A stretch of DNA of 63,572 nt, the filler included, from Licmophora abbreviata (lineage: Eukaryota), in NCBI GenBank assembly GCA_900291995.1. It is 21 parts of 21 records of this genome, joined end to end, with 100 filler letters (N's around TTAATTAATTAA, not from the genome) between each part and the next. Parts side by side here need not be neighbours in the genome. Positions count along the whole stretch, not along the records: positions 1 to 20,078 come from OLMU01004501.1; 20 more parts are not named here. One strand, 5' to 3'. This document shows positions 1 through 25,241 of this stretch, one piece after another (within the stretch, counting starts at the first letter, position 1; each line of letters opens with the position of its first letter). The notes under the pieces are model-generated. The model was not told where the DNA came from. It searched no databases and saw only the letters and a program-made list of their open reading frames with translations. The translations under genes were made by a program, and so were the position numbers.

Positions 1-284
1 GCCGCATGCAGCATATTCGCTGCGTTCAACAGCATATTGAAATCCGTTGGCGTTAAGTCAGCGCCGTTGAACTCCTCAATAGCTCCATCGTAACCAGCCG
101 CGCGATAGCGTTCGCGCACAATCACCCGTGCTGTTGTTGTTTTTGCCGTTCCAGGCGGTCCCCAAAGCATTAACGGCTTGGAAGCACTGCCTGCAGCGTA
201 ACGCTGGCATTTTGCCTGCGCGGTTTGGTCCGCAAATATCAGCTCTGCAACTGTTTGCGGTTCGTACTTTTCTTCAAAATTCAT
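1..284 (-). CDS. Clamp-loader/RFC-like AAA+ ATPase, N-terminal part (runs off window)
   Basis: Own translation, not in the ORF track: MNFEEKYEPQTVAELIFADQ...KPLMLWGPPGTAKTTTARVI. RFC-box-II-like EKYxP plus Walker A; GGAGA RBS upstream. Confidence 0.75.
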   Translation of the reverse strand, partial: MNFEEKYEPQTVAELIFADQTAQAKCQRYAAGSASKPLMLWGPPGTAKTTTARVIVRERYRAAGYDGAIEEFNGADLTPTDFNMLLNAANMLHA

Positions 285-307
285 CTTATTTCTCCATTTA
301 AAAGTTA

Positions 308-340
308 AGTGCACGCAAAGCGCTCAGCTCTGCGTGCACT
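308..340. terminator. Intergenic hairpin (10-bp perfect stem)
   Basis: AGTGCACGCA-N13-TGCGTGCACT between the 251-aa gene and the ATPase gene; terminator or processing role is inferred. Confidence 0.45.
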
Positions 341-348
341 GTTTTTGC

Positions 349-1104
349 TTAAGCTTGCGCTACTGTTTCAGCTGTCAGCACCTGTGCAACAAACTGCTTC
401 ATATCTGCAGCTTTGCGCTGTTTCACTTCGTCAAGCGTGTCTTTGCTCGCAGCCTTTTTTTGCTGCTCGTCAAGCTCCTTGCCCATTACAGCAAGTGCAG
501 CGTTAACCAGCGCACGCTTGTTGCTGCCGTGCACAATCCTACCGTTGCCGCTGCCATCGCAATGCACCAGCGCCACCACGTAATCTGTGTCGTTTTCGCT
601 GTCGCTCAGCATGTAGTCTTGCAAGCCAAACGTCGCCAAAGCGTGCTCACCTGTCAGCGCATTAGCTGCAATGTCCCTGTAATCGTCAGCACTAAGCTTG
701 TTTGCTGTCTTGCTGCTTGCTGTGCGCCGCACATTTTCAATGCCGCCACGCTCAATTACAAAGTTTGTCAGCGTTTGTGCATCATCATGCTCGTCAAACC
801 ACACCTTCAGCACACTTGCATATGCATGCTCTCTGTTGCGCTCTTGTCCAAAAACAACACGCACAATTTTAAGCGCCAAGCTTGTGCCTTTGTTAAACTT
901 AACGCCCAGCTCTTCCGCTAGCGCATTAAACGCACGTGCGTGTGTTTTGTCTTCCTTAAGCTGTGCGTAAATGCCAGCGCACTGTTCCAAAATTGCGTAC
1001 AGCTCCGCGTTTGCTTGCTTGTAAACACCGTTTTCCCAGTGCTCGCGCTGTGCCACAAGTTCGTGCAGTGTCGCGCTAAGTGTAGTTTTAAAGTTTGTAG
1101 TCAT
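349..1104 (-). CDS. Hypothetical 251-aa protein, proline-free, element core gene
   Basis: Long ORF with AAAGGA RBS; helical-looking sequence with FVIERGGIENVRR; coding strand lacks TC and CC. Confidence 0.85.
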   Translation of the reverse strand: MTTNFKTTLSATLHELVAQREHWENGVYKQANAELYAILEQCAGIYAQLKEDKTHARAFNALAEELGVKFNKGTSLALKIVRVVFGQERNREHAYASVLKVWFDEHDDAQTLTNFVIERGGIENVRRTASSKTANKLSADDYRDIAANALTGEHALATFGLQDYMLSDSENDTDYVVALVHCDGSGNGRIVHGSNKRALVNAALAVMGKELDEQQKKAASKDTLDEVKQRKAADMKQFVAQVLTAETVAQA

Positions 1105-1191
1105 TTTAGTTCCTTTCTAGGTTTAAATTCGACGCAACACTGCGTTGCGCCGATGCAAGGAATGTGCCGCAGAGCATTGCACTTTGCTCTT

Positions 1192-1221
1192 CCAACATTA
1201 GTCCTTGAATAATGATGTTGG
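1192..1221. promoter_or_regulatory. Inverted repeat CCAACAT-N16-ATGTTGG, copy 1
   Basis: Arms and spacer length are conserved with copy 2, while the spacer sequence differs. Confidence 0.65.
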
Positions 1222-1271
1222 AGTTGCTTTTGCATGTTAAAATTGCAAACCCACAACCCAGAGATCATGCT

Positions 1272-1379
1272 GTGTACGAAGACTTTTTTCGTAGGCGCGG
1301 TCGGAGCGTGTTATTCTTTCGCTACGCGCCCCCGATGCCGGGTCGCGAGATGTCAGATGTCTTGTTTCTCTCATGTTGA
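1272..1379 (+). pseudogene. Truncated copy of the first 29 codons of the 264-aa regulator (35-aa mini-ORF)
   Basis: GTG start, then YEDFFRRRGRSVLFFRYAPPMPGREMSD-VLFLSC*. Confidence 0.7.
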
Positions 1380-1450
1380 TGGTGTCTGCCGAGCTCAAGT
1401 GGAGCTGCTCGGTGACAGGAATGTGCCGCAGGAATTTGCACATTGCTTTT

Positions 1451-1501
1451 CCAACATTAATTAGATTGTGATGATGTTGGGCTGATTTCACATGTTATAA
1501 T
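1451..1501 (+). promoter_or_regulatory. CCAACAT-N16-ATGTTGG copy 2 plus extended -10 (TGtTATAAT)
   Basis: IR at 1451-1480; TGTTATAAT at 1493-1501; GGGGG RBS before ATG 1529. Confidence 0.65.
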
Positions 1502-1528
1502 TGTGGCGCCACTACTTAGGGGGGCATA

Positions 1529-2323
1529 ATGTACGAAGACTTTTTTCGTAGGCGTGGTCGGAAAGTTTTGTTCTTCCGCTACGCACCCCCGATGCCGGGT
1601 CGGGAGGTGTCAGATGACATCTCGACAGCAAAGCAACCAAACCCACCCTATCCTGGTGCGCCGGGCTGGCGGTGCAGCGTCTATTATTATTGGTGGCGTT
1701 TTCTGAGGGAAAATTCTGACTTTGAAACCGTTGTCAGGTCCGGCAAAGCGATTGTACCCGACACCGTAGCTTATGATTTTCGTCACGTTTTCAACTCGAA
1801 CTTCAGGGTTTGGTGGGCACATCATGGGCGCTGGCTATTCTGCGAGCCACCCCGTGATCGTTTGCGAGTGGAAGACCCGCCTGTGTTTGACGATGATCCG
1901 ACGCGATTGCTGCTGTCGATCCCCGCAAGTGCAAATTTGGAAACAACGCTTTCTGATTTGCGCACGATCTTGCAGCCGATATTGGCGCAAAACAAAGCCG
2001 CAGCTGGCGGCAGCAAAGCGCGATACCCGGTGTGGACCAAGCCCGTTGTCACATCATTGCATCAGCACTTGCATGTTTGGGAGGTACATCGACAAAATCC
2101 CGATCTGAATTTCATTCAGTTGGCCGACGCTGTGGGTATCTTGCGGGGCGAGGACGATAGCTTGGAGACCAGAAATAAAAAGTCAGCCATCACCAGCCGT
2201 TTGGTGAAACAATCCAAGTTCATGATTGAGCAGGTGGCGTATGGCCGCTTTCCCGTTATGAACAATCAACAGCTTGAAGCTGGTATCAAGAAGTTCAAGT
2301 CTTTGCCTGATCGCAGATGGTAA
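1529..2323 (+). CDS. Putative FseA-like (DUF6499+DUF2285-like) transcriptional activator
   Basis: YYWWRFLRENSDF resembles the DUF6499 AWEFLRRN motif; C-terminal HTH-like LHVWE...FIQLADAVG...SRLVKQSKFMI...GRFP resembles DUF2285. Confidence 0.55.
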   Translation: MYEDFFRRRGRKVLFFRYAPPMPGREVSDDISTAKQPNPPYPGAPGWRCSVYYYWWRFLRENSDFETVVRSGKAIVPDTVAYDFRHVFNSNFRVWWAHHGRWLFCEPPRDRLRVEDPPVFDDDPTRLLLSIPASANLETTLSDLRTILQPILAQNKAAAGGSKARYPVWTKPVVTSLHQHLHVWEVHRQNPDLNFIQLADAVGILRGEDDSLETRNKKSAITSRLVKQSKFMIEQVAYGRFPVMNNQQLEAGIKKFKSLPDRRW

Positions 2324-2362
2324 GCCTGTTTGAGAAGACGTGCCCATGCTCTGTGGTGACAG

Positions 2363-2416
2363 AACACAGTCTTTAAAACACAGTGTTTTGACACCAGTGT
2401 TTAACCACAGTGTTTG
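2363..2416. repeat. Four tandem ~13-14 bp CAGT(G/C)TTT repeats including palindrome AAAACACAGTGTTTT
   Basis: Read directly, upstream of the DUF6626-like gene. Confidence 0.75.
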
Positions 2417-2486
2417 CGCTCAGCTTCACAACGGCAGCTTTCCCGACACGTTGAGATAAATACACGTGCGAATAGGGAGAATGATC

Positions 2487-2813
2487 ATGTCCAGACAGAT
2501 ATTGGAACAGATACGCGACGAACTGGTCAGCTGCGGTGTTGTGTCGTCGAACAAGGAGTTTTGCGAAAGCTGGTTGGCACGGGATGCAAGCTACATACGC
2601 GGGCTGAAGTTCCGCAACTTGGAGCCCAGTGCCGCGACACTGGCCACCTGCGCCAGCAAGCTGAGTTATTATGCCTACCACATTGCCAAAAGCGAGAAGC
2701 TTGAACACAAAGACTGGCATCGCCGCTTTGTTGAGCTGCGCCAGCTGTGTGAGCAGGCCATAGAACGACAGGCGAGGGCGCAGTGGATGACACCAAAGCG
2801 AATGGGGCTGTGA
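2487..2813 (+). CDS. DUF6626-like protein
   Basis: EFCESWLARDASYIRGLK..EPS pattern recalled for this family; AGGGAG RBS. Confidence 0.55.
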   Translation: MSRQILEQIRDELVSCGVVSSNKEFCESWLARDASYIRGLKFRNLEPSAATLATCASKLSYYAYHIAKSEKLEHKDWHRRFVELRQLCEQAIERQARAQWMTPKRMGL

Positions 2814-3172
2814 TGGGGACATGCATGATGGATTTCCCCCTACACAGCGAAAATCCCGCCGCGCGAAATCTCCTAGCCAGTTACTTATCGTTTCGGGGTG
2901 GTGAATTTGCATCACCCCAACCACGCACTATGGGAAATCCCGTATGCTGGTGAGCGAAGTCGTGGGCGAGGCTGTGTGCACGCAGCACTTCAAACCCAAG
3001 CAGTTGCCCATACCCGGTCCGACGAAAGCAAAGCCGCGCCCAAAGCCGAAAAAACGCAAGACACCCAAGCCATTTAATAAGCTAAAGCCAGACGAGTTGA
3101 GTTGATGGCGTCAACGACACGCTGCGCGGGCCCAGTAGTAGTCTTTCGGCACCAGCTCGCGCCGTGTGTATT

Positions 3173-3303
3173 GGGCAACGACTGGTCGCCGACGTGTGTG
3201 CAAATTTGGTGCGAAGTATCACGGGCTTGGCTGGTGTGAGGTTCCCACACAGACCTTGACACTACGGCTGGCGCACATAGCCCAAATAGCTTAACATGCT
3301 TGG
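3173..3303 (+). repeat. Conserved non-coding cis-element, copy A
   Basis: Core 3255-3303 matches 14958-15006 at 44/49; upstream GGGCAACGAC and GTGTGTGCA blocks also shared. Confidence 0.85.
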
Positions 3304-3320
3304 AAAATCGGGAGTTATGC

Positions 3321-3740
3321 ATGGAGCAATCAGCCCGCAACCTGTACTATGAGCGCATTGGGGCTGCGCCACTGGCAGCATGGTGCTTTTTCGAGAGCGT
3401 AGACGTGCACTTTCGCCCGCGCAATGATGTGGACGTTCGTTCTACGCACCCGAACGTTGAGGACATGAGGCTTCGGGCTGTTTGGAAGGCTGACGCGGGC
3501 AAGCCGCCGGAACAAGTGTTTGCCAAGATGACTTGGCAACCCAAGAACCTTGCTGTGTTTTCACGAATCAAGCTGACACCGGCACAGTTTGCTCATTTTG
3601 GATTTCAAGACGCTGAGAAGCCGAAAGCGGATAGCGAGCCCCAAAACAGCGATATCCGTCCATTTGAGGACAGCTGGCGCTATGGGGCGCTTCCATTCAT
3701 TCGTGCGCTTGAAACGGAGAAAATAAAATTGCCAAACTAA
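3321..3740 (+). CDS. Hypothetical protein
   Basis: ORF with GGAG RBS before ATG 3321; no recognisable motif. Confidence 0.65.
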   Translation: MEQSARNLYYERIGAAPLAAWCFFESVDVHFRPRNDVDVRSTHPNVEDMRLRAVWKADAGKPPEQVFAKMTWQPKNLAVFSRIKLTPAQFAHFGFQDAEKPKADSEPQNSDIRPFEDSWRYGALPFIRALETEKIKLPN

Positions 3741-3814
3741 AAAGCATTGCCAAGTGAGACCATGACAATTGGCTTTCCTTTTATTGTATAATTTTGGAAC
3801 ATCTTAATCACAAA

Positions 3815-6400
3815 CTATTCTTGGGGTATGGTTTCGATCAGAGCAGTTTTTGTATCAGACCAAAGCACTGATACGAAAGCAACTTCTTCCAATGATACCT
3901 CAGCGCCCGCTTTTATCGTCTGTTCAAGCTCGGCCATTGCCCTTGAAATTTTCACACAACCAAGGTTGGCAGAGCTCCCCTTTAATCGGTGCGCACTAGT
4001 TGCGGCTTCTGTATAATCATCTTCGCTAATATACCTTTCGATTTCGCAAACAATGATATCGCCGTTTGCAATAAAAGTTTCCAAAAGTCGGGAGAAGTCT
4101 TCACTCTTGAACATTGAGCGCAAAGGACCAAGTCGCTCCATGTCAATTAGACTAATGTCTTCTGCCTCTACTGGACTGAGGTCACCTGTTTCTTTGTTTT
4201 CTTTTTCAACAGGAGCCTCAAAAGGATGGTGCCCTTTAGAAGAAGTCAGCTTAGAGGAGATTTTGATTATCAAGCTATCGCGATTGGTAGGCTTTTCTAT
4301 GAACCCATCCATGCCTACACCTTTAGCGTTATCTTTGAATTCTTTTAAAACATTACCAGAGACTGCCATAATTAGGCTTGGTGCAATGCCACTTTGAGAT
4401 TCCAGCTTGCGGATCCTTTTTGTTGCCTCAAAACCATCCATATTGGGCATGGAAATATCCATCAGGACCACTTCTGGCTTGTAATTGGTAAACACTTCAA
4501 GCGCTTCAACGCCATCATTGGCAACTCGTAATATCGCACCGGTTGGCTGCAGCTGTTGCGATAAGACTCTTAGGTTCACCTCATGATCGTCCACCAATAA
4601 AAACTTTACACCATCGAAAACTTTTTGTTCCGGTGACAACATTTCACCATCGTTCAAGTGCTCCGCTTCACGATGGTCGGTCAAAGTATCATAAAGGGCT
4701 TTCGCCAGCATTTTGGGCCGCAAAGGCTTAGACACGATAGATGTGTGATCTTTATTGGTTGCTAAAAGTTCTTGGATATCTCCCCGCATCGACCCCATAA
4801 AAATAACTGAAGTGTTTTCGATTAGTGGATTGGAATAAATTTTATCAATCAGGGACTCATTGCGCAACTTAGGCATTTGAGATGCTAGAAGCAGTATATC
4901 GTAACGTTCTTCCGATGCAGCTGCAGCTTCGAGCAATGGCAGGATCTTCTCCCACCGGTTAGCTGTATCATAGTAGATACCCCACCATGATAAATGCTTT
5001 GAAGCAATCGCAATACTGGCTTGGCAATTGTCTACCAATAAAACCTTGAAAGGGCGGTTCTCTGTTAACGATTTGAGCGCTGTGTATTCCTCGGGGAAGT
5101 CGCTGACTGCCCCACACTGAAATAGAACTCTGCATGTAAATTTCGACCCATTGCCGAGGGAGGAAGCCGCAGTCAGCTCACCACTCATCATTCGGACAAG
5201 CTCTTGAGAAATCGTTAGCCCCAGGCCAGTGCCACCATATTTTCTGGTCGTACTTTCGTTCACTTGGTTAAACGGTTTGAAAATCGCTTCGAATGCATCT
5301 GCCGATATGCCTATGCCAGTGTCAGCGACACTGCAGTAAACTTCCGAACAGCCATCCTGGGGTACGAGCCTAACTTCTAGCGTTACAGCTCCCTTGCTCG
5401 TGAACTTAATGGCGTTGCTTAAAAGGTTCAGCAATACTTGCCTAAAGCGTGCACCATCACCGAAGAGATTATATTCAAGGTGTGTAGGACAATTGACCAA
5501 CAACTCTATGCCTTTTCCGGCAGCATTAAGCTCGACCATACTGACTGTGTCAAAAATTAAATCAATGAGGTCAAATTCTTCATTGTTAAGCTTGATTCCC
5601 GTCGCGTCGATCTGTGCAAAGTCCAGGATGTCTTCGATGATTAACTTGAGTGCGTTGCCTGAGTTCGTGATGGTATTTACGCACTCACGTTGACTGATGG
5701 TAAGGTTGGTCTCTCTGAGAAACTCAGCGTTACCTAAGACGCCATGTAAAGGAGTGCGGAGCTCATGACTCATATTTGCAAGAAAACGAGTTTTCGAAGA
5801 ATTTGCGTCTTCAGCCACATCGCGTGCGTGAACGATGTCCTTGATCAAAGCTTTTAGTGGTCTTCCGACGATTGCTCGAAAAGCAAACCAACTAGAAAGA
5901 ATTGAGGCCAGAAGGCTGAGAGCCAGAACAGTGATGGAGTTGCGTATTTGGGACTGACGTATCTGTGATACTTGTTCAGTGCTGAACCCAACGCGGAGTG
6001 TTGCCCAATCAGCGGCATTAAGTTGAACCTCAAGCCAATCGTCTACGTCAGCAAATTTGCAACCTATCATTGAAGGCGCCGAAAAATCGGGGACTTCAAC
6101 ACCGTTACGTGAAAGTGTTGCGCATTTGATCGATTGATTGCCAAGCAGAAGCTGTAAAAGCTGATTAGTGATATCATTTTTTGCATTCTGATCGAGGTTG
6201 GGGTTTTCTAATACGCCTTCAATCGACCCGGCAGTGCGGGCAACTGTGTTTCCAAGGCGTGTCGAAAAGTTATCGCGAGCGTCAAAAAAGCGCTCACTGT
6301 ATACGAAGTAGAGTGCAAGTGTGGACAACAGGAGAAAGATGGGGGTTGTAAACAGTAACAGCTTCGCAAAAAGAACAGTTGGTTGCGGCAGCTGGAGCAA
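3815..6400 (-). CDS. Hybrid sensor histidine kinase (2 TM, HisKA, HATPase, two REC, Hpt)
   Basis: FLANMSHELRTP, NLLSNAIKFT, DTGIG, GGTGLGL, VLMDISMP, AHRLKGSSANLG. Confidence 0.95.
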   Translation of the reverse strand: MLQLPQPTVLFAKLLLFTTPIFLLLSTLALYFVYSERFFDARDNFSTRLGNTVARTAGSIEGVLENPNLDQNAKNDITNQLLQLLLGNQSIKCATLSRNGVEVPDFSAPSMIGCKFADVDDWLEVQLNAADWATLRVGFSTEQVSQIRQSQIRNSITVLALSLLASILSSWFAFRAIVGRPLKALIKDIVHARDVAEDANSSKTRFLANMSHELRTPLHGVLGNAEFLRETNLTISQRECVNTITNSGNALKLIIEDILDFAQIDATGIKLNNEEFDLIDLIFDTVSMVELNAAGKGIELLVNCPTHLEYNLFGDGARFRQVLLNLLSNAIKFTSKGAVTLEVRLVPQDGCSEVYCSVADTGIGISADAFEAIFKPFNQVNESTTRKYGGTGLGLTISQELVRMMSGELTAASSLGNGSKFTCRVLFQCGAVSDFPEEYTALKSLTENRPFKVLLVDNCQASIAIASKHLSWWGIYYDTANRWEKILPLLEAAAASEERYDILLLASQMPKLRNESLIDKIYSNPLIENTSVIFMGSMRGDIQELLATNKDHTSIVSKPLRPKMLAKALYDTLTDHREAEHLNDGEMLSPEQKVFDGVKFLLVDDHEVNLRVLSQQLQPTGAILRVANDGVEALEVFTNYKPEVVLMDISMPNMDGFEATKRIRKLESQSGIAPSLIMAVSGNVLKEFKDNAKGVGMDGFIEKPTNRDSLIIKISSKLTSSKGHHPFEAPVEKENKETGDLSPVEAEDISLIDMERLGPLRSMFKSEDFSRLLETFIANGDIIVCEIERYISEDDYTEAATSAHRLKGSSANLGCVKISRAMAELEQTIKAGAEVSLEEVAFVSVLWSDTKTALIETIPQE

Positions 6401-6416
6401 AATACACTCCTACCAA

Positions 6417-6803
6417 TTATTTGATGCGTTCGACGCGACCCGCCATCATTAGCTTTTCAAGCGCCTCGCGATTGTTGATCTCGGTCTGATAAACGCGAAA
6501 GCCACTGTCAGTTTTTGTGATATAAAAGTCTACCGGAGCTGAAGATCCATTTTCTGTGGTTAGGTCCAAACAAAGAACATAGTCTTCGCCAATAGTCATA
6601 ACCATTGAATGGGTATCAATCGGATAGTATTTAACTACGTCTCCGGTCTCGAATTCGCGCCTTTGGATTGCGCCATCAACTAGAGATTGATCTACGTGTC
6701 TCTGCATGGTCAGCTGTAGTTCGGCAACCAAATCAGTCGTGTCATCGGCTAGTGCCGGTGACAACGAAAGAAATAACGCAAAAACTGGTGCTTGTAGGCG
6801 CAT
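6417..6803 (-). CDS. Secreted hypothetical protein, probably co-transcribed with the kinase
   Basis: Signal peptide ending ALA-DD; 16-nt gap to the kinase start. Confidence 0.8.
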   Translation of the reverse strand: MRLQAPVFALFLSLSPALADDTTDLVAELQLTMQRHVDQSLVDGAIQRREFETGDVVKYYPIDTHSMVMTIGEDYVLCLDLTTENGSSAPVDFYITKTDSGFRVYQTEINNREALEKLMMAGRVERIK

Positions 6804-7133
6804 CTTTTCCCCCCGCTGCAAGCTCCTTACGCTGACTTATTAACTCGACTGACCCTTAATTTACGCCAGCCTAGTTTTTTTAAGTCTACGTGCCAACTAT
6901 CCTTTCTGTTATAAGTGTTATCTTTCGCGTTCTGTTGCCCGCCTCCGAGCTGCATGTCTTTGGCTGCGAGTGAAGCGTGGCTGATCAATTTGATGTAGAG
7001 GTCCTTTTCCACAAAGGCAGCGTTAGTTTCATATCCCACACACTGTAACAAACACAGTGTTTGAGTTTACGGTGTCGAACATAGCGTTCCGCCAACCCGC
7101 TGCGTGAATAAATTTAAATAATGCGTCACAAAG

Positions 7134-7324
7134 GTAGCGCACTTTGTAGCGCAGCTTAAAAAATAACGATTAAGGCATTGTTAATAAACGTATATTTAAC
7201 GTGTTCTCAAATCATAATCCGCGTGTCGGGGGTTCAAGTCCCTCCTCCGCTACCAAAATACCCCTAAAACAAAGACTTGAGAGTTTGGGTGACGCGTTTT
7301 GCGCGTAGCGCACCTGTAGCGCAC
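7134..7324 (+). repeat. Putative integrase arm-type sites GTAGCGCA(C/G) flanking the att core
   Basis: Direct repeats at 7134, 7146, 7305 and 7316; AATGCGTCA (7120) mirrored by TGACGCGTT (7290). Confidence 0.7.
7210..7255 (+). mobile_element. att core: 3' half of tRNA(CAT), Met-type
   Basis: AATCATAATCCGCGTGTCGGGGGTTCAAGTCCCTCCTCCGCTACCA has anticodon loop, T-arm and CCA, but the 5' half is absent. Confidence 0.9.
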
Positions 7325-7472
7325 TTTTCCGTCGCGCAGCTGCGCTTTTGAGCGTGGAATCAACTGTGTTGAATTCAGTGTTTGCAAAAGAGTTTCTGAA
7401 CACGGTGTTTGGCGAAACCGGCGTAACCACAGCTTTCATAAAGAAGTTCGTCAACCTACCCCATGCCTGCGG

Positions 7473-8187: not shown

Positions 8188-8189
8188 CC

Positions 8190-11100: not shown

Positions 11101-11234
11101 GAGCGGATGGTGATCGCTGGATTTTCCCGTTTGGGCAAACTGATGTATGTCATCGTGCCCAGGAGCAACAGTCCTATCATTACAAGGATTGTCAGGCGCG
11201 ATTTTTCAAGGCCGAGGCGAGTCAGGAAATCCAT
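8190..11234 (-). CDS. RND efflux permease (AcrB/AcrD/AcrF family)
   Basis: 1014 aa; GLLVDNGLVVVE, GIIINNAIVLID, RATPVMLTSLTT. Confidence 0.95.
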   Translation of the reverse strand: MDFLTRLGLEKSRLTILVMIGLLLLGTMTYISLPKRENPAITIRSAIVTASLPGMSPERVEDLIAIPLERAAREIAEVEDISTLILTGTAKLTLSVYDSVPREKLDQIFQDIRNRMDEAKGDLPQGTSGPSVNTNFGDVSIATVAVTGEGFTPAEVFDAADDLRAGLYGLDGITKITIYGEQEERIWLEIDSRRLATVGVQIQQVLNDLAAQNVILPAGQLDANGTNIILEANGDLGSVEELEGVLTKVSGLAGLVRLKDILTVRRGYVDPAEKPIFYNGQPALLVAVEMSDDRDIQQVGHALRDQITALEATQPIGISYNISTFQEKNVTVAINNALSNVGQTFAVVLLVMLVFLGLRPALIIASIVPFTMMFALLGMAQIGIDLEQISIAAFIVSLGLLVDNGLVVVEDIEARVNAGSDPEEAAIASGGQFFAPLAVASITTVSAFIPMWILDGTEGEFAFSLGAVVGIMLAGSWFTAHYILPFLAAKLLRPRRSLRDGEGWFVRSYGELTRAILPLGLPIILVCYGLVAASIMVFPLLKSEMFPLSERAEYLIYIDMPKGTAITATEEEARRAEAWLRDTSVNPEVRDTTLFVGDGGPRFYLALAPAETDPASAFILVNTHDYQGAVVAADRARRHLFENHPAARARVTRLSMGGSESGIVEVEITGPDANVLLLAAKQVEGAFAEVPDLVLNQNDWGNKRLKIIIDIAQDKARELGVTSSDISDVMDTYFSGTDYSTYRDGSDAIPIVARAEASFRDSLEDLANLSVPAGSGMVSLAQVATFRPSLEFSQFRRENQVRQIVISGKSATLAASEVEALIEPTLAGLDLDDRFTVKVGGESEQSHDVNAKLGAGLPLALAVMLAALVYQFNSARRVSLTFMTIPLIIVGAPLALYLAERPMSFFAILGLISLMGIIINNAIVLIDQIDIERRTMPLDEAIVTGAKKRATPVMLTSLTTVLGLVPMALFGGALFEPMAILMIGGLLISSPLSLLFVPAAYRLMFRRDSLEQTE

Positions 11235-12332
11235 TTAGTCCGCTGCCTCTATAAGCTTGACCTCTTGCCCGTCGCGCAGGAACGACACACCCGCCGAGGC
11301 GATGCGGTCGCCCGCCTCTAGCCCGTCAATCACCAGCAGCGCGTTCTCGCGCACGCCCGCGATCTGGATCTTTCGGCGCTTCACGGTCGAGGTGTCTGGT
11401 TCATAGGCAAAGACCTGCGCGGCGCCCGGGCCCGCGCGATCTGCGATGTCGCCCTCCATGATGATCGCGGTCAACGGGATGGAGAAACCTTGCTCCTTCG
11501 GAAGCGGCAGCTCGATGGCCACTTCGACCGCCATCCCCGCCTTCAGGATCGGGTCTGCTTCGTCCAGCGTTACGACGACCGGAAAGCTCGAAACCGCATC
11601 GGCGCGCGAGCCAAGTTCGCTTACCACGCCGCGCAGGACAAGATCCGGCCGGTCGGCCAGCCGCACCGAAGCGGGCGTTCCGACAACGAGCTGGCTGATC
11701 ATGTCGAAGTTGACGCTAAACGAGACTTCGAATGCGTCTGGCGCATAGAGCGACACGATGGGCGTGCCGGTCGAAACCGTCTGGAAACTCTGGACCTCCA
11801 CTGCGTTCAGTATGGAATCGAACGGAACCACGAGAACCGCTTTGGCCAAATCGTCCTTGGCGGCGCCAAGCGAGGCTTCGGCCTGTTCCAGTTGCGCCTT
11901 GTCCGTGACCACGCCGGTCTTGGCATTGTCCAGCGCTACCTTGGTAATCGTGCCCGATTTGAAAAGTTCCTGCTGGCGGGCCAGTGTCTCGAGCGCACTG
12001 GCGTAAGCCGCTTGTGCCGCACGCACTCCCGCTTCGGAATTTGCAATCTGTATCTTGAACGCCTCGGGGTCGAGCCGTGCCAGAACCTCTCCGGCATCGA
12101 CCCGTTGACCGACCTGAAGATCGACCTCAAGCAGTTTGCCGGACGTGTCGAAAGACAACACGTTGAGCGACGTGGGTTCCAGCACAGAAGGAAACCGCCG
12201 CACGGTGGCCCTCTGGGTATCGGCAACCAGATGCGTCTTGAGTCCGCGGATCGGCGCGTCAGCGGTCTTTTTTTCTTCGTCGAGGCATCCCGCGAGTGCG
12301 AATGTTATACCCAGTATCAAAATCCGTTTCAT
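11235..12332 (-). CDS. RND periplasmic adaptor (MFP), lipoprotein
   Basis: LAGC lipobox, GQRVDAGEVLARLD, coiled hairpin; abuts the permease. Confidence 0.93.
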   Translation of the reverse strand: MKRILILGITFALAGCLDEEKKTADAPIRGLKTHLVADTQRATVRRFPSVLEPTSLNVLSFDTSGKLLEVDLQVGQRVDAGEVLARLDPEAFKIQIANSEAGVRAAQAAYASALETLARQQELFKSGTITKVALDNAKTGVVTDKAQLEQAEASLGAAKDDLAKAVLVVPFDSILNAVEVQSFQTVSTGTPIVSLYAPDAFEVSFSVNFDMISQLVVGTPASVRLADRPDLVLRGVVSELGSRADAVSSFPVVVTLDEADPILKAGMAVEVAIELPLPKEQGFSIPLTAIIMEGDIADRAGPGAAQVFAYEPDTSTVKRRKIQIAGVRENALLVIDGLEAGDRIASAGVSFLRDGQEVKLIEAAD

Positions 12333-12426
12333 GCCCTCGCCCTTCTTCTTGTGCTGTAGATGGAAAAAATGCCGAGTGATCTGGTGAATACCTTTGAGCC
12401 GGCATTCCCCAGGTGGCTCGCAACGA

Positions 12427-12756
12427 TCAACTCACCGGCTGGGCACAGGTTGCTTCGATCAAGGCAATATACGCCTCGAGTTCTTCGGCGGTACGCCCGC
12501 TCACGATATCCGTCTTGTCGCGGTTCTCACCCTTGATCGCGCCGGTAGCAAGGCCAACAGGTGTGACGAGACGCACCGCGCTTACAGCGCGTTCGCCGCG
12601 CTTTGGCATGGCGGCTTGCAGGGCCGCAATATCCGCCTCGGCGGTCATGCAATCCACCGGCTGTTCAAGCAGTTGCGCGCGCTTCTCGGTCTTGGACGTC
12701 CCGCAACCGGCAAGCAGTGCGACACTGAGCAGGACAAGCAGTTTCTTCAGATCCAT
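12427..12756 (-). CDS. Small lipoprotein
   Basis: LLAGC lipobox; two further Cys. Confidence 0.8.
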   Translation of the reverse strand: MDLKKLLVLLSVALLAGCGTSKTEKRAQLLEQPVDCMTAEADIAALQAAMPKRGERAVSAVRLVTPVGLATGAIKGENRDKTDIVSGRTAEELEAYIALIEATCAQPVS

Positions 12757-12827
12757 CTTAATCTCTTTTCAATTGATCCATTTGCCCAGGGGAACGCCGA
12801 GGCGCGAGGGGCAACTTGTTTTTGGGG

Positions 12828-13223
12828 TTACTGTTTCATCGCCGCGCTAAGTTTGCTGACCGTAGTCACGCAGACCGCCTCGACCTCTGCCGCTCTCCGC
12901 ATGAGGCAGGCCATGATCCGACCATCGCCCGGCGCCACATCCGCGCAATGGGTTTGGATATCGGTCGCGCAGGTTTCATAGGTCTGGACAACAATATCGA
13001 AGAACGCCTCTATGATACTGTCAGTTGCCGTGGTCGCCGCATGGCAGGTCTCCGTCACGCGGTCGCTGTGGGCGTAGAGGCAAGCTGCCGGCCGGCCATC
13101 TCGTGGCGTGACAGAGTTGCAATAGGTGGCGATGTCAACCTCGCAGGGCACGACAAAGGTTCGTGCCGAGGCGAGCGGTGCCACAGCCGGTGCGATGACA
13201 AGGGCAAGGGTTTTGGAATACAT
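12828..13223 (-). CDS. Secreted cysteine-rich repeat protein
   Basis: Two repeats of CxxDIxxxCxxVxPxDGRxxACL. Confidence 0.8.
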   Translation of the reverse strand: MYSKTLALVIAPAVAPLASARTFVVPCEVDIATYCNSVTPRDGRPAACLYAHSDRVTETCHAATTATDSIIEAFFDIVVQTYETCATDIQTHCADVAPGDGRIMACLMRRAAEVEAVCVTTVSKLSAAMKQ

Positions 13224-13232
13224 AAAGCTGCC

Positions 13233-13546
13233 TTAAGGAGTGACGATGATGTAAGCGGTTTTGCCGGTTCCGTCGGTCACGGGCTGGTAATAGACCCCGC
13301 CGCAATAGTGATAGATCACACCGCTCACCGTGCGCGTTACGCAGCTTTGCGGTAGGGAACAGTAATAGGTGCTCCGGCGCACCTGCCGGCGGGTCGTTCG
13401 AATGATCTGCCCGGCCTCTGCCGGGCTGATACCCAACGGCAGCGCGATCGAAACACCCGCTATTCGGATTTCACTGGACCTGTCCCCATCAAAAGGCCCA
13501 TGGCGACTGCCGCGCAAAAGGCGTTTTTTGATTTTAAGTTGTTCAT
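13233..13546 (-). pseudogene. Small secreted protein, apparent frameshift near 13471
   Basis: Signal-like MNNLKSKNAFCAAVAMGLLMGTGPV is out of frame with IRIAG...LPQSC...YCGGVYYQP. Confidence 0.55.
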
Positions 13547-13565
13547 CCCCATCGGCCTTCCAAGA

Positions 13566-13844
13566 TCAGAGTTTCTCAAGACAGGCTATCACCGCCTTGG
13601 CATTGGCGCGGGCATCTACCTGTGTCAGACTACCTGACTGCACCATGGGCTTGAGGATGCCACGCATCTCACTTTTCATGTTGTCCCCGGACGAGACACT
13701 CGGTGCCACGGCGGCATACATGGTCTGGCCCGTTGCCGTCAGGGAGGCGGCGCAGGCATCGGCTTCGGCCTGACCGGCGATAGCGGCTTGTCCCGTGGCG
13801 GTTATCAGGAATGTCACGGCGGCCGTGCGAATGGCGTTTCTCAT
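13566..13844 (-). CDS. Small secreted protein with two Cys
   Basis: MRNAIRTAAV...AAIA signal peptide; AAGGA RBS. Confidence 0.75.
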   Translation of the reverse strand: MRNAIRTAAVTFLITATGQAAIAGQAEADACAASLTATGQTMYAAVAPSVSSGDNMKSEMRGILKPMVQSGSLTQVDARANAKAVIACLEKL

Positions 13845-14227
13845 CTCGAAGGTCCTTTCAAGGCCAATGGAACCGGGTCGGTATGCCTGACCGCCCCTTC
13901 CTGAATTGTTCGTCAAATACATCTCTCGATGACGGCGCAGGATGTGTCAGGATCGTGCCGTGCGCTGATCGCGCCGAAATATGCACCGGATAACATCTTG
14001 TAGCTTTACGACGCCGCTAGAAACCTATCTTGCGAGTTTCTTCTGCCCAAAGCGCTGCTTTACGCTCTTTGGGGTAAATTCTGGCTGAGTGCAGGATGAC
14101 ACGCTACAGGCATCGTCCGAATGCTAAGAGTATTAGGGGGAGATAACGCGCTCAATGAACAGGCCAGCGTAATGTCAAAAAGGGCGATCCAAAGGCCGCA
14201 TTTTTCGTTCTCGTGAGTTGCGTTTTA

Positions 14228-14835
14228 GGGTCAGGACCCATTGAATTCAGCACCTTAGCGTGAGTCACCGCGCAAGAACGAAAGGTGATATGTCTGATAT
14301 CTTCTGGCTGACCGATGCTCAGATGGTGCGTCTGGGGCTCTATTTTCCGAAGCCCCACGGCAAGCCATGGGTGGATGACCAGCGTGTGTTGAGTGGGATT
14401 ATTTTCACAAATCGCAATGGCTTGCGCTGGCGTCATGCCCCGAGGGAATACGGGCCTCACAAGACACTCTACACCCGACGGAAGCGATGGAGTGATAAAG
14501 GCATCTTTGCCAAGTCATGATCGGTCTGGCCGCCGAGCAAGGCGAGAAAAATACCGTGATGATCGACGCTACTTATCTCAAGGCTCACAGGACAGCGACC
14601 AGCATGGGCGTGATAAGGGTGGCAATGATCAACCGGGGCGCCTGATCGGTCGCACCAAGGGCGGGATGAAAACCAAGGTACAGGCTATCTGCGACAGCAA
14701 AGGCCGCCCGCGTGACCTCTTCGTCACTGCCGGTCAGGTCAGCGACTATATGGGTGCCCGGGCATTGCCCAAAGATCTTGCTCTCCACCATCGCTCTTGC
14801 AGCAATCGTCATCTATTGGCTATGAATCCTGACCC
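14228..14835 (+). mobile_element. IS5-family remnant, internally deleted
   Basis: IRs GGGTCAGGA / TCCTGACCC flanked by TA; fragments MSDIFWLTDAQM...GLRWR..P.EYGPHKTLY and IGRTKGGMKTK. Confidence 0.9.
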
Positions 14836-14883
14836 TAAGCGCCCTGTTTGTGTTGGTTGATCACGCGCACGCACCCATGCACC

Positions 14884-15006
14884 GGGCAACGACCAAGATT
14901 TGCTGTGTGTGCAGATTTTTGGCGAGGGATGTGGTGGGTGTTAGGTCCCTCGTAGTGCTTGACACTACGGCTGTCACACATAGCCCAAATGGCCTAACGT
15001 GCTTGG
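14884..15006 (+). repeat. Conserved non-coding cis-element, copy B
   Basis: Homologous to 3173-3303. Confidence 0.85.
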
Positions 15007-15213
15007 CGAACTGTGAAGCACAGCAAGCATCACTCAGCCCAAATTAACTTCTCCCAGCTAGGCCGCGTCACCCCACCGCGCGGCGCCAACTGAACGCTCC
15101 ATCTGCGTCGCATTAGATACGGTGCAAAAGGCTTTGGACCCGACGAAATGATGGATCACCTGCAGATCGCTCATGCAGGACGACGACACCGCAAAAGACT
15201 GCCTCAGGGCAGC

Positions 15214-16854
15214 TCACTTGGGGCGGGGCATCCATCCGAACGGAAACGGGCGTATCCCAAGGATCACCACGGTCATGCGTGTCACGAAGGTGCCGATGAC
15301 CGTGACCACGATGGCCAGTGCGATCTCTTCCGGCGCCAGCACATTGGGGCGGGTCAGCAGGAACAGCGAAAAGGCCAGCCCCCAGAAAAACGGAACTTCG
15401 GCGTAAAACTCGGTCTTTAGAGTTCCGACCTGGCCGGATTGCCGCACAATATCACGCAGGATGCCGCCACCGGCGGCTGTCAGCATCGCGAGGATCGGCC
15501 CCCATAGCCACAATGGCTCCGCGTCCATGGATATTGCGATGGCAAGCCCCGAGACCGTGAAGACGGCCATTCCCAGTGAATCGGTCAGCTCCTGAACATT
15601 GGCGATCGTGACAAATCGGGGTACTTTGGGCAGGCGTGACGGTGTCCAGCCCCGGGTTGCCATAAGCCGTAGCGCAAGAATGATCGCAAAACCCACCAGA
15701 ACGGTCACGCCGACAAGGCATAGGTAAAGCGGTGATGACATCATGCCCAACGGGTGCCGGTCCAACAGGATGTCCCGCAAGGCCCCGCCTCCAAGGGCCG
15801 GAAGCGCGGACAGCACCAGCGCACCGAAGAAACTGAAATTTTCCCGATAGGCGATCAACACGCCCGACACGGCAAAGGCCACTGTTCCAACAATGGTCAG
15901 AATAAAGAACAGCCGCGTGTCGAGCACGTAACTCATCAACACCGAGGAAATGCTTGAATGGAGGCGTTTCTTCAATTGTCCATTGTCTTCCAATGTCTTG
16001 ATTGCCTGATCGATGGCGGCCAGCGATGAAGGTTGCATGGTGGTCTTGCTGAAAATGAAATGAACACTCGTGATACCAGGCATCATGATTTCGGCCGCCT
16101 GGAATTTCAGCCCAGCCTCAAGGGCCGCTGTCGATACGCCAAGCCTGTCTCCGACAAAACCATCGATCCGTCCTGCCAGCAGGTTGCGAAGATTTTCCTC
16201 GTCATTCGACGCGGGAATGACCCGCCGTTCCCGTGTCGCGGTGTCGATGCTTTGATTCAGCGCGGGGTCCGCGAACAGACGGCCAGGAATGACCCCAAGC
16301 CGGAAATCGGGCGTTTCGATGATTAACTTGGCGATATCGGTCGTGTCATGCAGGCTGATCTCGTCCTGCCTGACATAAAGCGCGATCCGCGCCCATCGAT
16401 AGGGCAAAGAATAATGAAACCTGTCATCGCCATTCTCGGGCTGAAATGCCCCAAGCGCAATGTCGCCTCGGCCTTCGCCGAGATCTTGCAACTGATCCTG
16501 CCAGGACTGTCTGCGAAGATGGGCGTCCATTCCGGCCAAGTGCAACACATCGGCCAGGATTGCGATGTCCAGCCCCTCGACGCCTTGAAGCTGTCCGACC
16601 GCCGCTGTCTGATAAGGTTTCGACATGATCCAGCCGCCGCGTAAGCTGGTCATGTCATAAGTCTGGTGCGGTGGCTCAAGATCTGTCTCCGCCGCATTGA
16701 CCACGTCCTGTGCCATCGCTGGTGATGTGATCGAACCACACAGACCCCACATCGCGGCGAGACCGAAGGTTGCGGAAAACAGGAACGACCAGAGGCAGGA
16801 TCGCATCTTCAAGCCTGCTTTGGCCAGCCACTCGTCATGGCGTCGGGGGCACAC
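15214..16854 (-). CDS. Substrate-binding domain (family 3) fused to a TRIC/UPF0126 membrane domain
   Basis: EGLDIAIL...L.EGRGDIA...LLAGRIDGF, then GTVAFAVSG...GGGALRD and LTAAGGGILRD. True start may be ~16807. Confidence 0.85.
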   Translation of the reverse strand: MCPRRHDEWLAKAGLKMRSCLWSFLFSATFGLAAMWGLCGSITSPAMAQDVVNAAETDLEPPHQTYDMTSLRGGWIMSKPYQTAAVGQLQGVEGLDIAILADVLHLAGMDAHLRRQSWQDQLQDLGEGRGDIALGAFQPENGDDRFHYSLPYRWARIALYVRQDEISLHDTTDIAKLIIETPDFRLGVIPGRLFADPALNQSIDTATRERRVIPASNDEENLRNLLAGRIDGFVGDRLGVSTAALEAGLKFQAAEIMMPGITSVHFIFSKTTMQPSSLAAIDQAIKTLEDNGQLKKRLHSSISSVLMSYVLDTRLFFILTIVGTVAFAVSGVLIAYRENFSFFGALVLSALPALGGGALRDILLDRHPLGMMSSPLYLCLVGVTVLVGFAIILALRLMATRGWTPSRLPKVPRFVTIANVQELTDSLGMAVFTVSGLAIAISMDAEPLWLWGPILAMLTAAGGGILRDIVRQSGQVGTLKTEFYAEVPFFWGLAFSLFLLTRPNVLAPEEIALAIVVTVIGTFVTRMTVVILGIRPFPFGWMPRPK

Positions 16855-17237
16855 GGGCGGTCTCGTTGCTTATTGCAATGATGGAAGGGATCACAAGGCA
16901 GCTTTTGTCAAAGTCGTGCAAGGTCAAATTCCTGAGTGGCGTCGCCTCGGAAATGGTTGGAGCATTCAGCCCCTGAATACAAGGCCCAGGCGTTCCGGCA
17001 GCTTGATACGCCGACTCGCCAGCGCCTCAACCCGCTGATATTTCGTGAAAATCCACCTTGGCCTCCGCTATCGATCGACCTATCCAGACAATAAAAACCT
17101 GCTGCCCTTGGCGTATTGGTGTCATTGTCCTGACATCGATATGCAAACACCTCCAGATGGCGCGTCATCTCTCTTTCGATAGTGGCGACACCGCCTCTTA
17201 GAAGTCTTGTTTCAGGATCTCAACCGACATTCCCCAA

Positions 17238-17772
17238 GTGGCCAGCCGAAGCACACCTTACGAGAACCTGCTTGAGCAAGCATCCGAATTAAAGCGTTTC
17301 GCCTTTGACCTGAGGCATCAGCTAAAGGCGAAACGCGCGCAACGATCGAACAAAGCCCTGCATTTCGCGAAACGCATTAGAGCAGCTGTTTTGGGAATTT
17401 TGGAGTGCAGGGTTCGAGCAGGCCGTGCGTCTGCGTCCAGAGGCTTGCCGGGCGTACTTTGATGCTGAAGACACGCGGGTAGAAGTTGCGTTTTCTTGTA
17501 TGTGCGGTCTTCTTGCGATGCAGCTTGGTGAAAGCTCTTTGCCCCAAGAGCGGCGGGGCGAATTACAGAAATGCGCCTGCAACCTGATACCTGAAGTGGT
17601 CACGGTGATGAACGACTGGATCAAATCACAGGCACCCGTCCCTATGGATGCTGCACCGGATTGTCTCAGTGCAGCGAACGTGAATTTAGGTCCAGCGCGA
17701 TCAAACAAGGTTGGGCGTAAGAACAATGCGTTTGTGGAGGCGGTGGAAAGTACAAGCGATGCTGTGGGGTAA
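17238..17772 (+). pseudogene. Possible frameshifted hypothetical gene
   Basis: Two overlapping open frames (17238-17462 and ~17326-17772); no motif recognised. Confidence 0.3.
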
Positions 17773-17785
17773 ATTGAGGCTTTGA

Positions 17786-17908
17786 AATGCGTCAAGAGCG
17801 TAGCTCACTATAATGTTCCAAATTCAAGTCATTGAAAGTAAATATTTAAATAGCGTGCCCTGAAATCATAATCCGTGTGTCGGCGGGCAGGTTCCTCCTC
17901 CTCTATCA
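17786..17908 (+). mobile_element. Degenerate outer att site with arm sequence
   Basis: AATCATAATCCGTGTGTCGGCGGGCAGGTTCCTCCTCCTCTATCA (17864-17908), preceded by AATGCGTCA-N5-GTAGCTCAC as at 7120-7142. Confidence 0.8.
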
Positions 17909-17914
17909 TCACCC

Positions 17915-20024: not shown

Positions 20025-20178
20025 GCGAATTGTCCTGATTGATCAACCGGCCCTGATCAGAGCGCCTTCGATACCCTGNNNNNNNNNNNNNNNNNNNNNN
20101 NNNNNNNNNNNNNNNNNNNNNNTTAATTAATTAANNNNNNNNNNNNNNNNNNNNNNNNNNNNNNNNNNNNNNNNNNNN

Positions 20179-23501: not shown

Positions 23502-23515
23502 GGAAGGACAGGATC

Positions 23516-25206: not shown

Positions 25207-25241
25207 GACGTCCTCTTCGCGCAGCTACGCGCCCGATGCAA

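Follow-up and report, generated by a model that had tools for sequence, protein, structure and literature searches.

We analysed a window of 63,572 nucleotides (the whole stretch, filler included) of the assembly deposited as Licmophora abbreviata (GCA_900291995.1), and describe here positions 1-17908, which are part of record OLMU01004501.1 and whose host is a marine alphaproteobacterium. We read this region as the right-hand part of an array of two integrative elements placed in tandem in the 3' half of a tRNA(CAT) gene, to which we give a probability of about 0.78. Island 1 takes up at least 1-7255 and looks intact, and island 2 (7256-17908) appears to be an older, decayed relative of island 1, which no longer has an integrase or core but has kept both attachment (att) arms. 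The right ends of both elements are marked by direct repeats of the 3' segment of the tRNA (both on the + strand), with an exact 46-nt copy (AATCATAATCCGCGTGTCGGGGGTTCAAGTCCCTCCTCCGCTACCA) at the junction of island 1 and island 2 (7210-7255), and a decayed copy at the right end of the array (17864-17908), which agrees in 38 of 46 positions and differs by seven substitutions and one deletion. Among the 26 places listed for the exact copy, eight match it perfectly with a tRNA-Met(CAT) gene (100% over 45-49 nt), and all eight loci retrieved from this listing contain an intact 77-nt tRNA-Met(cat). In a cloverleaf read by eye, the copy begins with the final base of the anticodon stem's 5' strand and ends with the CCA. 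As the acceptor stem opens with a G1-C72 pair, the cognate tRNA(CAT) is not of the initiator type, and is predicted to be of the Met or Ile2 type. Neither a whole tRNA (ARAGORN) nor a third copy of the tRNA piece was found in the window, and a blastn search within the window aligned the two copies together with their upstream arms at 75% over 84 nt (E 5.7e-9).

The nearest genome (G001) is collinear with window 17900-37000 in blocks of 93-98% identity, with homology beginning at 17900, and its intact tRNA-Met abuts the homologue of window 17900 onward (94%). With an intact tRNA directly against the backbone, the G001 site is empty, and from the position of this tRNA it follows that 17864-17908, the positional orthologue of its 3' half, is the displaced 3' half of the chromosomal gene. 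The decay of this copy (8 differences in 46) is similar to that of the first 33 adjoining intergenic bases (6 differences between window and G001), which makes the first insertion about as old as the split of the two lineages. Separately, G001 (contig C1) has approximately 1.4 kb and 14.4 kb of extra DNA at window positions ~18775 and ~20078-20180 in an otherwise collinear backbone, and these are further indels beside the tRNA hotspot.

Each tRNA copy is preceded once by the motif AATGCGTCA-N5-GTAGCNCAC (7120-7142 and 17786-17808), with 0.00 occurrences expected and none of 100 shuffles reaching two. Similarly, the word GTAGCNCAC occurs four times against 0.65 expected (0/100 shuffles reach four), always less than 200 nt from a tRNA piece, and flanks the copy at 7210-7255 on both sides. 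The predicted distal (P-type) att arm of island 1 (7038-7154, + strand) contains the palindrome AAACACAGTGTTT (7050-7062), AATGCGTCA-N5-GTAGCGCAC (7120-7142) and GTAGCGCAG, and the distal arm motif of island 2, identified by motif count, reads AATGCGTCA-N5-GTAGCTCAC (17786-17808, +). With regard to the other end of island 2, its predicted integrase-proximal (P'-type) arm (7256-7440, +) contains TGACGCG, two GTAGCGCAC words and ACNGTGTTT-type words, all of which are included in a match of 82% over 224 nt between 7210-7432 and a related locus (L020, 13087-12865), where this sequence forms the tRNA 3' half and the spacer up to the large integrase. No integrase follows this arm in the window, nor was one found elsewhere in 1-18000 by tblastn with the integrases of relatives. 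A second piece of shared sequence precedes the first right end by 3.9 kb and the second by 2.9 kb (3233-3303 versus 14937-15006, 83% over 71 nt, blastn E 2e-14, with weaker likeness over ~140 nt); in island 1 it stands upstream of the core gene p146, and in island 2 it is a 77-nt relic (14937-15013, +, nhmmer E 1.7e-19) behind which the p146 gene is gone. The likeness of the left end to the L020 spacer and this relic together make island 2 a relic of the same family.

A preliminary description of this DNA had already proposed a tandem array of related tRNA(CAT) elements with tRNA 3' halves at these positions, the same arm before each, a shared element of ~130 bp 3-4 kb before each right end, and a backbone of higher GC content resuming on the right. 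The repeats, the arms, the shared element and the resumption of the backbone were all recovered, and the array is further supported by the empty G001 site, the L020 likeness, the relic motif and a strain lacking island 2 (see below). The prediction on base composition held in part: GC content is clearly lowered in island 1 (0.484 versus 0.603 in the backbone), but not in island 2 (0.576).

Genes of the two islands

At its left edge, island 1 starts with the first 104 codons of an RFC/clamp-loader-like AAA+ ATPase (3-314, - strand), a core gene which runs off the end of the window and which was recognised by profile matches (Pfam AAA at 1.5e-4 and Rad17, NCBIfam RFC large subunit at 4.4e-9, phrog_168 clamp loader at 9e-11), and by 83% identity to the full 234-aa AAA+ gene of its closest relative (L013). 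Next to it lies P0001 (349-1104, -), a mostly helical core protein of 251 aa, with 61 homologues at E<=1e-3, none of which is named, and an AlphaFold2 (AF2) model with a mean predicted local distance difference test (pLDDT) score of 80.6. Its fold and profile matches were uninformative (best PDB profile E 0.68; best structure search Z 6.1, all helical hairpins), and Foldseek gave no match in PDB or BFVD at E<=0.001. A defence assignment for the AAA+ protein and P0001 was considered and rejected (PADLOC gave only weak matches, to Cas10 at 1.4e-4 and IetA at 9e-5). The divergent control region between P0001 and P0002 (1105-1528) has a 259-bp tandem duplication (1151-1359 / 1410-1616), CCAACAT..ATGTTGG inverted repeats, and repeats of families D1 (87 nt, 90%) and D5 (50 nt, 82%). 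What is duplicated is the promoter region of P0002 together with ~29 codons at the start of the gene (87 nt, 90%), and a short upstream open reading frame (ORF) with a P0002-like start is left behind; the same intergenic region in a related locus (L043) is only ~160 bp long.

On the opposite strand, P0002 (1529-2323, +; see below) is followed by a cluster of ACNGTGTTT words (2364-2415, repeat family D2) which includes the palindrome AAACACAGTGTTT and is a putative operator upstream of the gene for the DUF6626 protein (2466-2813, +), a core protein of 115 aa which passes the gathering cut-off of PF20331 (121.3 bits versus 27.3, E 2.4e-35). The word ACNGTGTTT occurs nine times in the window against 0.63 expected (0/100 shuffles reach nine), with eight of the nine in 1-7410; the palindrome stands ahead of the DUF6626 gene and again within island 1's distal arm, a further ACNGTGTTT word stands in the proximal arm of island 2, and eight words are common to the DUF6626 promoter and the distal arm, a number reached by 4 of 300 shuffles. 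Two small conserved ORFs follow (2783-3105, +), encoding 56 aa (2783-2953) and a very basic, Pro/Lys-rich peptide of 53 aa (2944-3105), with 42-73% identity by tblastn to four related loci (L014, L016, L018 and L020) and no Pfam match. The conserved non-coding motif CTTGACACTACGGCTG..CACATAGCCCAAAT.. (3233-3310, +, nhmmer) directly upstream of p146 is a probable promoter or leader, and as Rfam gave no match at E<=1 in 1-20000, it is no known RNA. The p146 gene itself (3321-3740, +) encodes a 146-aa core protein 62% identical to that of L016, 44% to L018 and 32% to L020, without a family match in Pfam, NCBIfam or PHROG. The remaining genes of island 1 are cargo: a hybrid sensor histidine kinase (3815-6400, -; Pfam Response_reg 4e-28, HATPase_c 3e-25, HisKA 5e-21, Hpt 1e-9) and a 134-aa protein with a hydrophobic N-terminus (6417-6821, -), predicted from translation and without a match in the same three databases.

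Island 2 contains cargo and broken genes. The RND efflux transporter (8190-11234) and membrane-fusion protein (11235-12332) form one block on the - strand (8190-12332; Pfam ACR_tran 2.8e-150, HlyD_3 2.8e-12), and a fusion of a solute-binding domain with a UPF0126/'Gly_transporter' membrane domain lies at 15214-16854 (-; Pfam Gly_transporter 2e-27, SBP_bac_3 5e-8). An IS5-family transposase fragment (14393-14860, +; NCBIfam NF033580 at 2.9e-11) covers only profile positions 102-173 of 258, and a UPF0149/SEC-C-motif gene (17238-17774, +) is broken into three pieces in different frames, found by tblastn with the Pfam-assigned protein of L016 17681-18649, which correspond to residues 173-187, 194-304 and 305-322 of the L016 protein, with 58% identity in the main piece. 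Within this broken gene, a stretch of ~85 bp (17290-17375) is multi-copy in public sequencing runs, with raised depth, several contigs that differ by 3-7 letters, and loose ends to its left and right in three runs (X1, X7 and X8), and is probably a small dispersed repeat. Six further reading frames, 2373-2924(-), 16908-17168(-), 17322-17795(-), 12394-12981(+), 13369-13773(+) and 7946-8182(+), were rejected as genes, as their translations look non-coding.

No family of type IV secretion systems (T4SS), coupling proteins, relaxases or capsids was found among the ORFs of the window in Pfam, NCBIfam and PHROG scans (for island 1 from position 1 rightward), in agreement with the preliminary description of the visible core, which had also rightly named the RFC-like ATPase and the DUF6626-like gene. 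Its 'YC-free gene' was not confirmed, since each of the 16 ORFs checked has Y, C or both, and its FseA-like activator, P0002, stands only as a remote likeness. This putative transcription activator of 264 aa, placed by structure and family consensus, is one of a family that comprises 337 representative clusters (E<=1e-3), and its AF2 model (mean pLDDT 90.9) has RovC (6xz5_A) as the best of 48,161 chains (Z 5.0, rmsd, the root-mean-square deviation, 5.4, 139 aligned), followed by sigma region 4 domains at Z<=3.8; the structure tool warns that Z below 8 can reflect a common arrangement. An Atlas cluster at score 0.94 to P0002 has PF20109 in 14% of its members. FseA-type activators of the transfer of integrative and conjugative elements (ICEs) are defined by an AWEFLRRN helix, and Arg37 is essential in FseA (PMC10359603); the family consensus WWxFLRxN of P0002 keeps its W, F, L, R and N, whereas the Arg37 position is variable. 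FseA of ICEMlSymR7A and RovC share with P0002 a similar size, a three-part helical architecture and a place on a mobile element beside genes which P0002 may switch on, with a W-x-F-L-R-x-N helix in P0002 that resembles AWEFLRRN, and differ in that P0002 has no Pfam match to DUF6499 or DUF2285 and does not conserve Arg37. Besides the weakness of the RovC match (Z 5.0), the searches speak against a close relationship: Pfam gave nothing for P0002 at E<=5, none of 70 family members matched Pfam at E<=0.01 (DUF6499 and DUF2285 included), Foldseek found no match, and the best PDB profile hit, TraM at E 0.039, covers 22 residues only. We read P0002 as a remote FseA/RovC-like activator rather than as a member of that family.

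A conserved element family in Rhodobacterales

We searched with a profile of P0001 homologues and found 50 loci, nine of them in species genomes (all Rhodobacterales) and 41 in metagenomes. The family consists of tyrosine-recombinase elements, and was found only in Rhodobacterales genomes and on marine or saline metagenome contigs. Gene order is constant across the 50 loci, and in the orientation of the window runs from the tRNA through a large integrase, an Xer-like recombinase of ~190 aa, DUF3768, DUF6641, in some loci a candidate Gp2-like HUH Rep, small ORFs and the RFC-like AAA+ gene to P0001, and continues divergently with the P0002 regulator, DUF6626, small basic ORFs and p146, after which come the cargo and the distal att arm. 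Among loci with room for the respective gene, the AAA+ gene is directly beside P0001 in 35/37, DUF6626 is encoded on the other strand at most 2.6 kb from P0001 in 21/23, DUF6641 lies within 4.5 kb in 15/15, and a short tyrosine recombinase within 9 kb in 8/9. The divergent neighbour was recognised as P0002 by tblastn in 21/40, and both of the misses that were tested with profiles proved to be homologues (hhalign probabilities 98.2 and 99.8). Beyond the AAA+ gene, relatives encode small ORFs, a protein of 208-290 aa which is the candidate Rep described below, DUF6641, DUF3768, the Xer-like recombinase (188-196 aa, catalytic domain only) and an integrase of ~410 aa, in some loci with accessory Phd/YefM, Fic or H-NS genes. 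The large integrase varies among relatives (40-86% identity), with three different tRNA targets. A tRNA gene or 3' copy lies within ~3 kb beyond it in seven of the eight cases with enough flank, four of them at tRNA-Phe (L016, L018, L019, L051), one at the tRNA of the window (L020), and one each in the genomes G297 (tRNA-Cys) and G361 (tRNA-Phe, where element B has a 3' copy). The preliminary description had offered core genes that do not co-occur at tRNA sites elsewhere as grounds for giving up its reading; these 50 loci and seven tRNAs show the opposite.

Tandem arrays also occur elsewhere in the family. In the complete genome G361, three units follow a tRNA-Phe, two of them with the core, bounded by 45-nt tRNA 3' copies at 92%, 96% and 100%, with the likeness extending to 106 nt in two, and the distal arms of its elements A and B have a similar AACACAGTGTT..CCGCC motif. 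G297 has a single unit of 34 kb (L038/L039, G297:C1 1045815-1080107) at a tRNA-Cys with a 45-nt repeat, and its core is flanked by two blocks of cargo, one of them a cox (CO dehydrogenase) cluster and the other made up of SNF2-helicase, DUF1156 methylase and DUF499-HEPN genes. This unit also contains a second integrase and an IS3 element. An nhmmer profile of the p146-upstream motif, made from three seed sequences (both islands and L016), gave 11 hits at E<=1 including the seeds, and thus eight further loci, of which L015, L020, L053 and L054 are at E<=1e-5 and L018, L055, L078 and G297 at E 9e-4 to 0.018; the motif stands directly before a p146 homologue in L016, L018, L053, L054 and L055. 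The distribution of the family is sporadic: within the order it occurs in 12 of 401 genomes and in 11 of 138 genera, and it is found in none of the 12 genomes of the genus of the window. No relaxase, T4SS, coupling protein, capsid, terminase, portal or primase was found among 41 + 35 + 78 ORFs of relatives (Pfam, PHROG, NCBIfam), and our literature searches for DUF6626, DUF6641 and DUF3768 and for tandem tRNA islands of Rhodobacteraceae brought up no description of the family.

The candidate Rep is a 232-aa protein of relatives which matches clusters automatically named 'Inovirus Gp2 family protein' with an Atlas score of 0.98, and 7 of its 12 members match PF23343 (REP_ORF2-G2P) below threshold (best E 0.0024). 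The FGTLK, H-x-H-F (H-I/V-H-F) and Y..T.E.W columns are invariant in the 12 aligned sequences, and resemble HUH Rep motifs 1-3 (FxTLT-like, HUH and catalytic Tyr). For the same protein, NCBIfam at E<=1 gave nothing relevant (two chance-level hits at E 0.09 and 0.3, in one of the 12 members), a PDB profile search gave nothing at E<=10, and PHROGs gave no match.

Three other observations concern this tRNA and the recombinases. One subfamily has a complete tRNA-Met(cat) gene of its own as part of the core, where it is placed between DUF6641/DUF3768 and the short recombinase (L017 13566-13642; L019 12527-12602; L062 7376-7452; L065 7387-7463; L079 7420-7496), with a sequence different from that of the att tRNA, and as the L019 element ends at a tRNA-Phe, the internal gene is cargo and not an att site. 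The tRNA 3' piece of the window is also present in two or three close copies in other genomes of the class (G026:C100 54812, 70163 and 76929; G031:C1 3076999 and 3078145), and a P0001 relative was found in none of five genomes tested (G026, G031 and G017, which have several copies of the tRNA piece, and G021 and G022), which implies that other, unrelated types of element also stack at this tRNA. In the window itself, pieces resembling the C-terminal part of tyrosine recombinases lie ~7.5 kb to the right of the array (25272-25812, -), and include a likeness to the short recombinase of the family (41% over 43 aa).

Presence and absence of island 2 in related strains

Four public runs, all in the form of contigs, were compared with the window over 1-20000. 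In one of these (X7), which carries a different organism label and stems from a different study, a single contig of 8708 nt at depth 16 covers 1-7208 without other letters and resumes at 17863-19332 with one gap, thus skipping 10,654 nt, and the depth of X7 is zero or below 1 over most of 8672-14007. At the joint 7208|17863, 13 letters (AAATCATAATCCG) fit both sides, as 7209-7221 equals 17863-17875; this stretch takes in the anticodon loop plus 4 nt at the start of the anticodon stem's 3' strand, and is the only long identity between the two tRNA copies, which are 75% alike in the rest. Logan contigs are built from words of 31 letters, the same word length as in the Logan index, and if the X7 contig rests on such words, the joint is no mis-assembly over a 13-letter repeat. 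A stretch of 13 nt is short for RecA-dependent exchange over 10.6 kb, and is enough for a tyrosine integrase. With its joint inside the shared 13 nt, island 2 was gained or lost as a unit. Because island 2 looks old and the outer tRNA copy is decayed, we favour loss in the X7 lineage, through the integrase of island 1 acting in trans; a gain of island 2 in the lineage of the window is the alternative, and is not the direction that we favour.

In X1, a run from which the window may stem, the loose ends that stand before 7210 have the sequence of the tRNA 5' half, and a second contig of 102 nt covers 7231-7331 with seven other letters and one gap (93% alike). The sample therefore holds an intact tRNA and a second copy of the tRNA end with its arm, and from its sequence this copy looks as the left junction of island 1 should, which applies at the level of the sample only. 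The runs also differ from the window by an extra T after 3778 (X1, X7) and an extra A after 12363 (X1, X6, X8), both intergenic, which may be single-letter assembly errors in the window. In both X1 and X7, the Logan contigs over the window's first letters extend only 27-29 letters to the left of position 1. These assemblies break where the window itself does, which suggests that the DNA beyond this edge, with the remaining core, is repeated in these genomes. No RNA run is listed among the public runs which hold this stretch.

Mode of operation and rival explanations

In its mode of operation the array is a textbook case of accretion of integrase islands at a tRNA, whereas the family itself is new. 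The Islander catalogue reportedly describes such tandem accretion of tyrosine-integrase genomic islands at tRNA and tmRNA genes, and the islands described here share with them the insertion in the tRNA 3' end, a repeat of the tRNA segment at each junction, an integrase beside the tRNA in relatives, older units which are displaced outward and decay, and an empty site in a related genome. The differences are that the core beyond the integrase is made up of families without known function, and that it includes a second recombinase with a catalytic domain only. Similarly, the tycheposons of Prochlorococcus (bioRxiv 10.1101/2020.12.28.424599) have a marine host, a tyrosine recombinase at a tRNA, ends with partial tRNAs, and degenerate remnants; they integrate repeatedly at a single site, which pushes older elements into the island, their cargo serves niche adaptation or defence, and they lack machinery of their own for conjugation or capsids. 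In contrast, their hallmark primase, helicase and polymerase were not found here (at the level of Pfam families only), and the hosts here are Rhodobacterales, not cyanobacteria. A third comparison concerns the IntY/AlpA/Gp2-like tmRNA islands of Pseudomonas (I23, I44, I55; PMC12595487), which also have a tyrosine integrase, direct repeats, a Gp2-like core protein, many ORFs of no known role, and cargo that varies and includes defence, and which likewise lack genes for autonomous transfer. They differ in targeting tmRNA rather than tRNA and in the AlpA, RadC and YqaJ families, none of which was matched here, the Gp2-like assignment is below threshold and restricted to relatives, and a helper phage is proven for the Pseudomonas islands only. 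As far as tested, the family belongs neither to the tycheposons nor to these islands.

For the catalysts, regulation, replication and transfer of these elements we infer the following scheme. The large integrase would bind the GTAGCGCAC words of the arms and recombine within the anticodon-loop part of the 46-nt repeat, so that new elements would enter at the intact tRNA and displace older ones outward, and a resident integrase could act in trans on the arms of a decayed unit, which would explain a near-identical strain lacking exactly island 2. P0002 may be the switch for the operon from DUF6626 to p146, and the ACNGTGTTT palindromes in the DUF6626 promoter and both att arms may be sites for an element-encoded regulator or directionality factor. 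Once an element is excised, the Gp2-like protein of relatives may start rolling-circle replication, and transfer between cells would have to depend on a helper, be it a phage, a gene transfer agent (GTA) or a conjugative element. Taken to its full extent, the scheme describes a self-contained system for switching, excision and rolling-circle replication, composed of the FseA-like switch, the large integrase, the catalytic-only Xer-like recombinase, the Gp2-like HUH Rep and the RFC-like AAA+ protein. The elements would then form a new class of helper-dependent elements of marine Rhodobacterales which build tRNA islands by accretion, and prune or re-mobilise integrase-less neighbours in trans through shared att arms; we put this forward as a tentative possibility.

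Several results count against the reading of the array and against this scheme. The integrase, the remaining core and the intact tRNA of island 1 lie beyond the left edge, so that its completeness rests on relatives, and one relative with its integrase (L017) has no tRNA within 4.8 kb beyond it. Whether X7 differs by a loss or by a gain is a reading based on contigs, in which circles and rare excision products are not visible. The Gp2-like gene was found in only 16 of the 50 loci (many of which are short) and the window lacks it, as do the 1.6 kb that follow the AAA+ gene in L013, the closest relative; its protein reaches no curated threshold. With regard to regulation, G297 and G361 element A each share a single word between DUF6626 promoter and arm (reached by 193/300 and 218/300 shuffles), and element B shares six (9/300 shuffles), the palindrome not among them; the link between promoter and att arm words thus holds in the window and is not general in the three relative elements tested. 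Finally, the P0001 profile had no match in IMG/VR viral contigs, P0001 none in 72,556 plasmid records, and DUF6626 none in 50,697 phage records, so that these searches give no direct sign that the elements are packaged or carried by plasmids.

Transfer by a helper could take two forms. The family may be a phage satellite, resembling phage-inducible chromosomal islands (PICIs) or tycheposons, packaged by a helper phage or GTA, and its size, tRNA integration, cargo and lack of transfer genes are all as expected for this; DUF6641 and DUF6626 also match PHROGs without an assigned function (2e-14 and 8e-8). In Pseudomonas, a jumbo phage transduces tmRNA islands that encode a tyrosine integrase and a Gp2-like protein (PMC12595487). 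However, scans of the window and relatives gave no family of capsid, terminase (the small subunit included), capsid-remodelling, portal or primase/helicase proteins, and together with the empty searches for P0001 in IMG/VR, for DUF6626 in phage records and for the P0001 model in BFVD (E<=0.001), this leaves a satellite doubtful. We rate as equally doubtful an integrative mobilisable element, in which the Gp2-like HUH protein would serve as relaxase at an origin of transfer (oriT) of the element and a resident plasmid or ICE would supply the T4SS. Rhodobacterales commonly carry T4SS plasmids, which fits such a lifestyle, as do the HUH-type motifs of the 232-aa core protein of relatives and the control of conjugative element transfer by FseA-type activators (PMC10359603), whereas no coupling protein, relaxase family or oriT was recognised, plasmid records lack P0001, and the HUH gene is not in every locus.

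Alternatively, both islands could be immobile relics of integrations long past, with the X7 difference due to an ordinary deletion between short direct repeats or to homologous replacement by another strain's DNA, without site-specific recombination by an element integrase. The state of island 2, with its broken UPF0149 gene and IS5 fragment and without an integrase, would agree with this, the integrase is not visible in the part of the array within the window, and contigs are unable to show excision products. The X7 joint nevertheless falls inside the sole long identical stretch of the tRNA copies, the 13 nt of the anticodon loop, and island 1 is identical in both strains and comes from a family with intact integrases and repeated arrays, which renders immobility unlikely. 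Least probable of all is that the conserved module is itself a cargo system, for instance for defence, which rides on unrelated integrases: the weak IetA and Cas10 matches to the AAA+ protein and P0001 and the variability of the large integrase and its targets point that way, but the module has a fixed place and order relative to the recombinases and att arms, and counts a regulator and a recombinase among its genes as well as a Rep candidate, the PADLOC matches are far from significant for a family assignment, and the true cargo (histidine kinase, RND, cox, defence-like) varies on the far side. We therefore retain the reading of 1-17908 as a tandem array of two tRNA-integrated elements.

Bacteria of the Roseobacter group are abundant in the sea, and their gene exchange is only partly understood. 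The family described here ties niche genes, in the window and in relatives sensor kinases, efflux pumps, CO-dehydrogenase clusters and defence-like systems, to approximately ten conserved core genes, none of which has been studied, and provides the first functional contexts for DUF6626, DUF6641 and DUF3768. The window and X7 form a natural, near-identical pair with and without an integrase-less island, which makes recombination in trans directly testable, and such recombination could explain how decayed islands keep moving. If the elements indeed form a self-contained class as outlined above, decayed blocks of cargo such as the RND pump would stay mobile.

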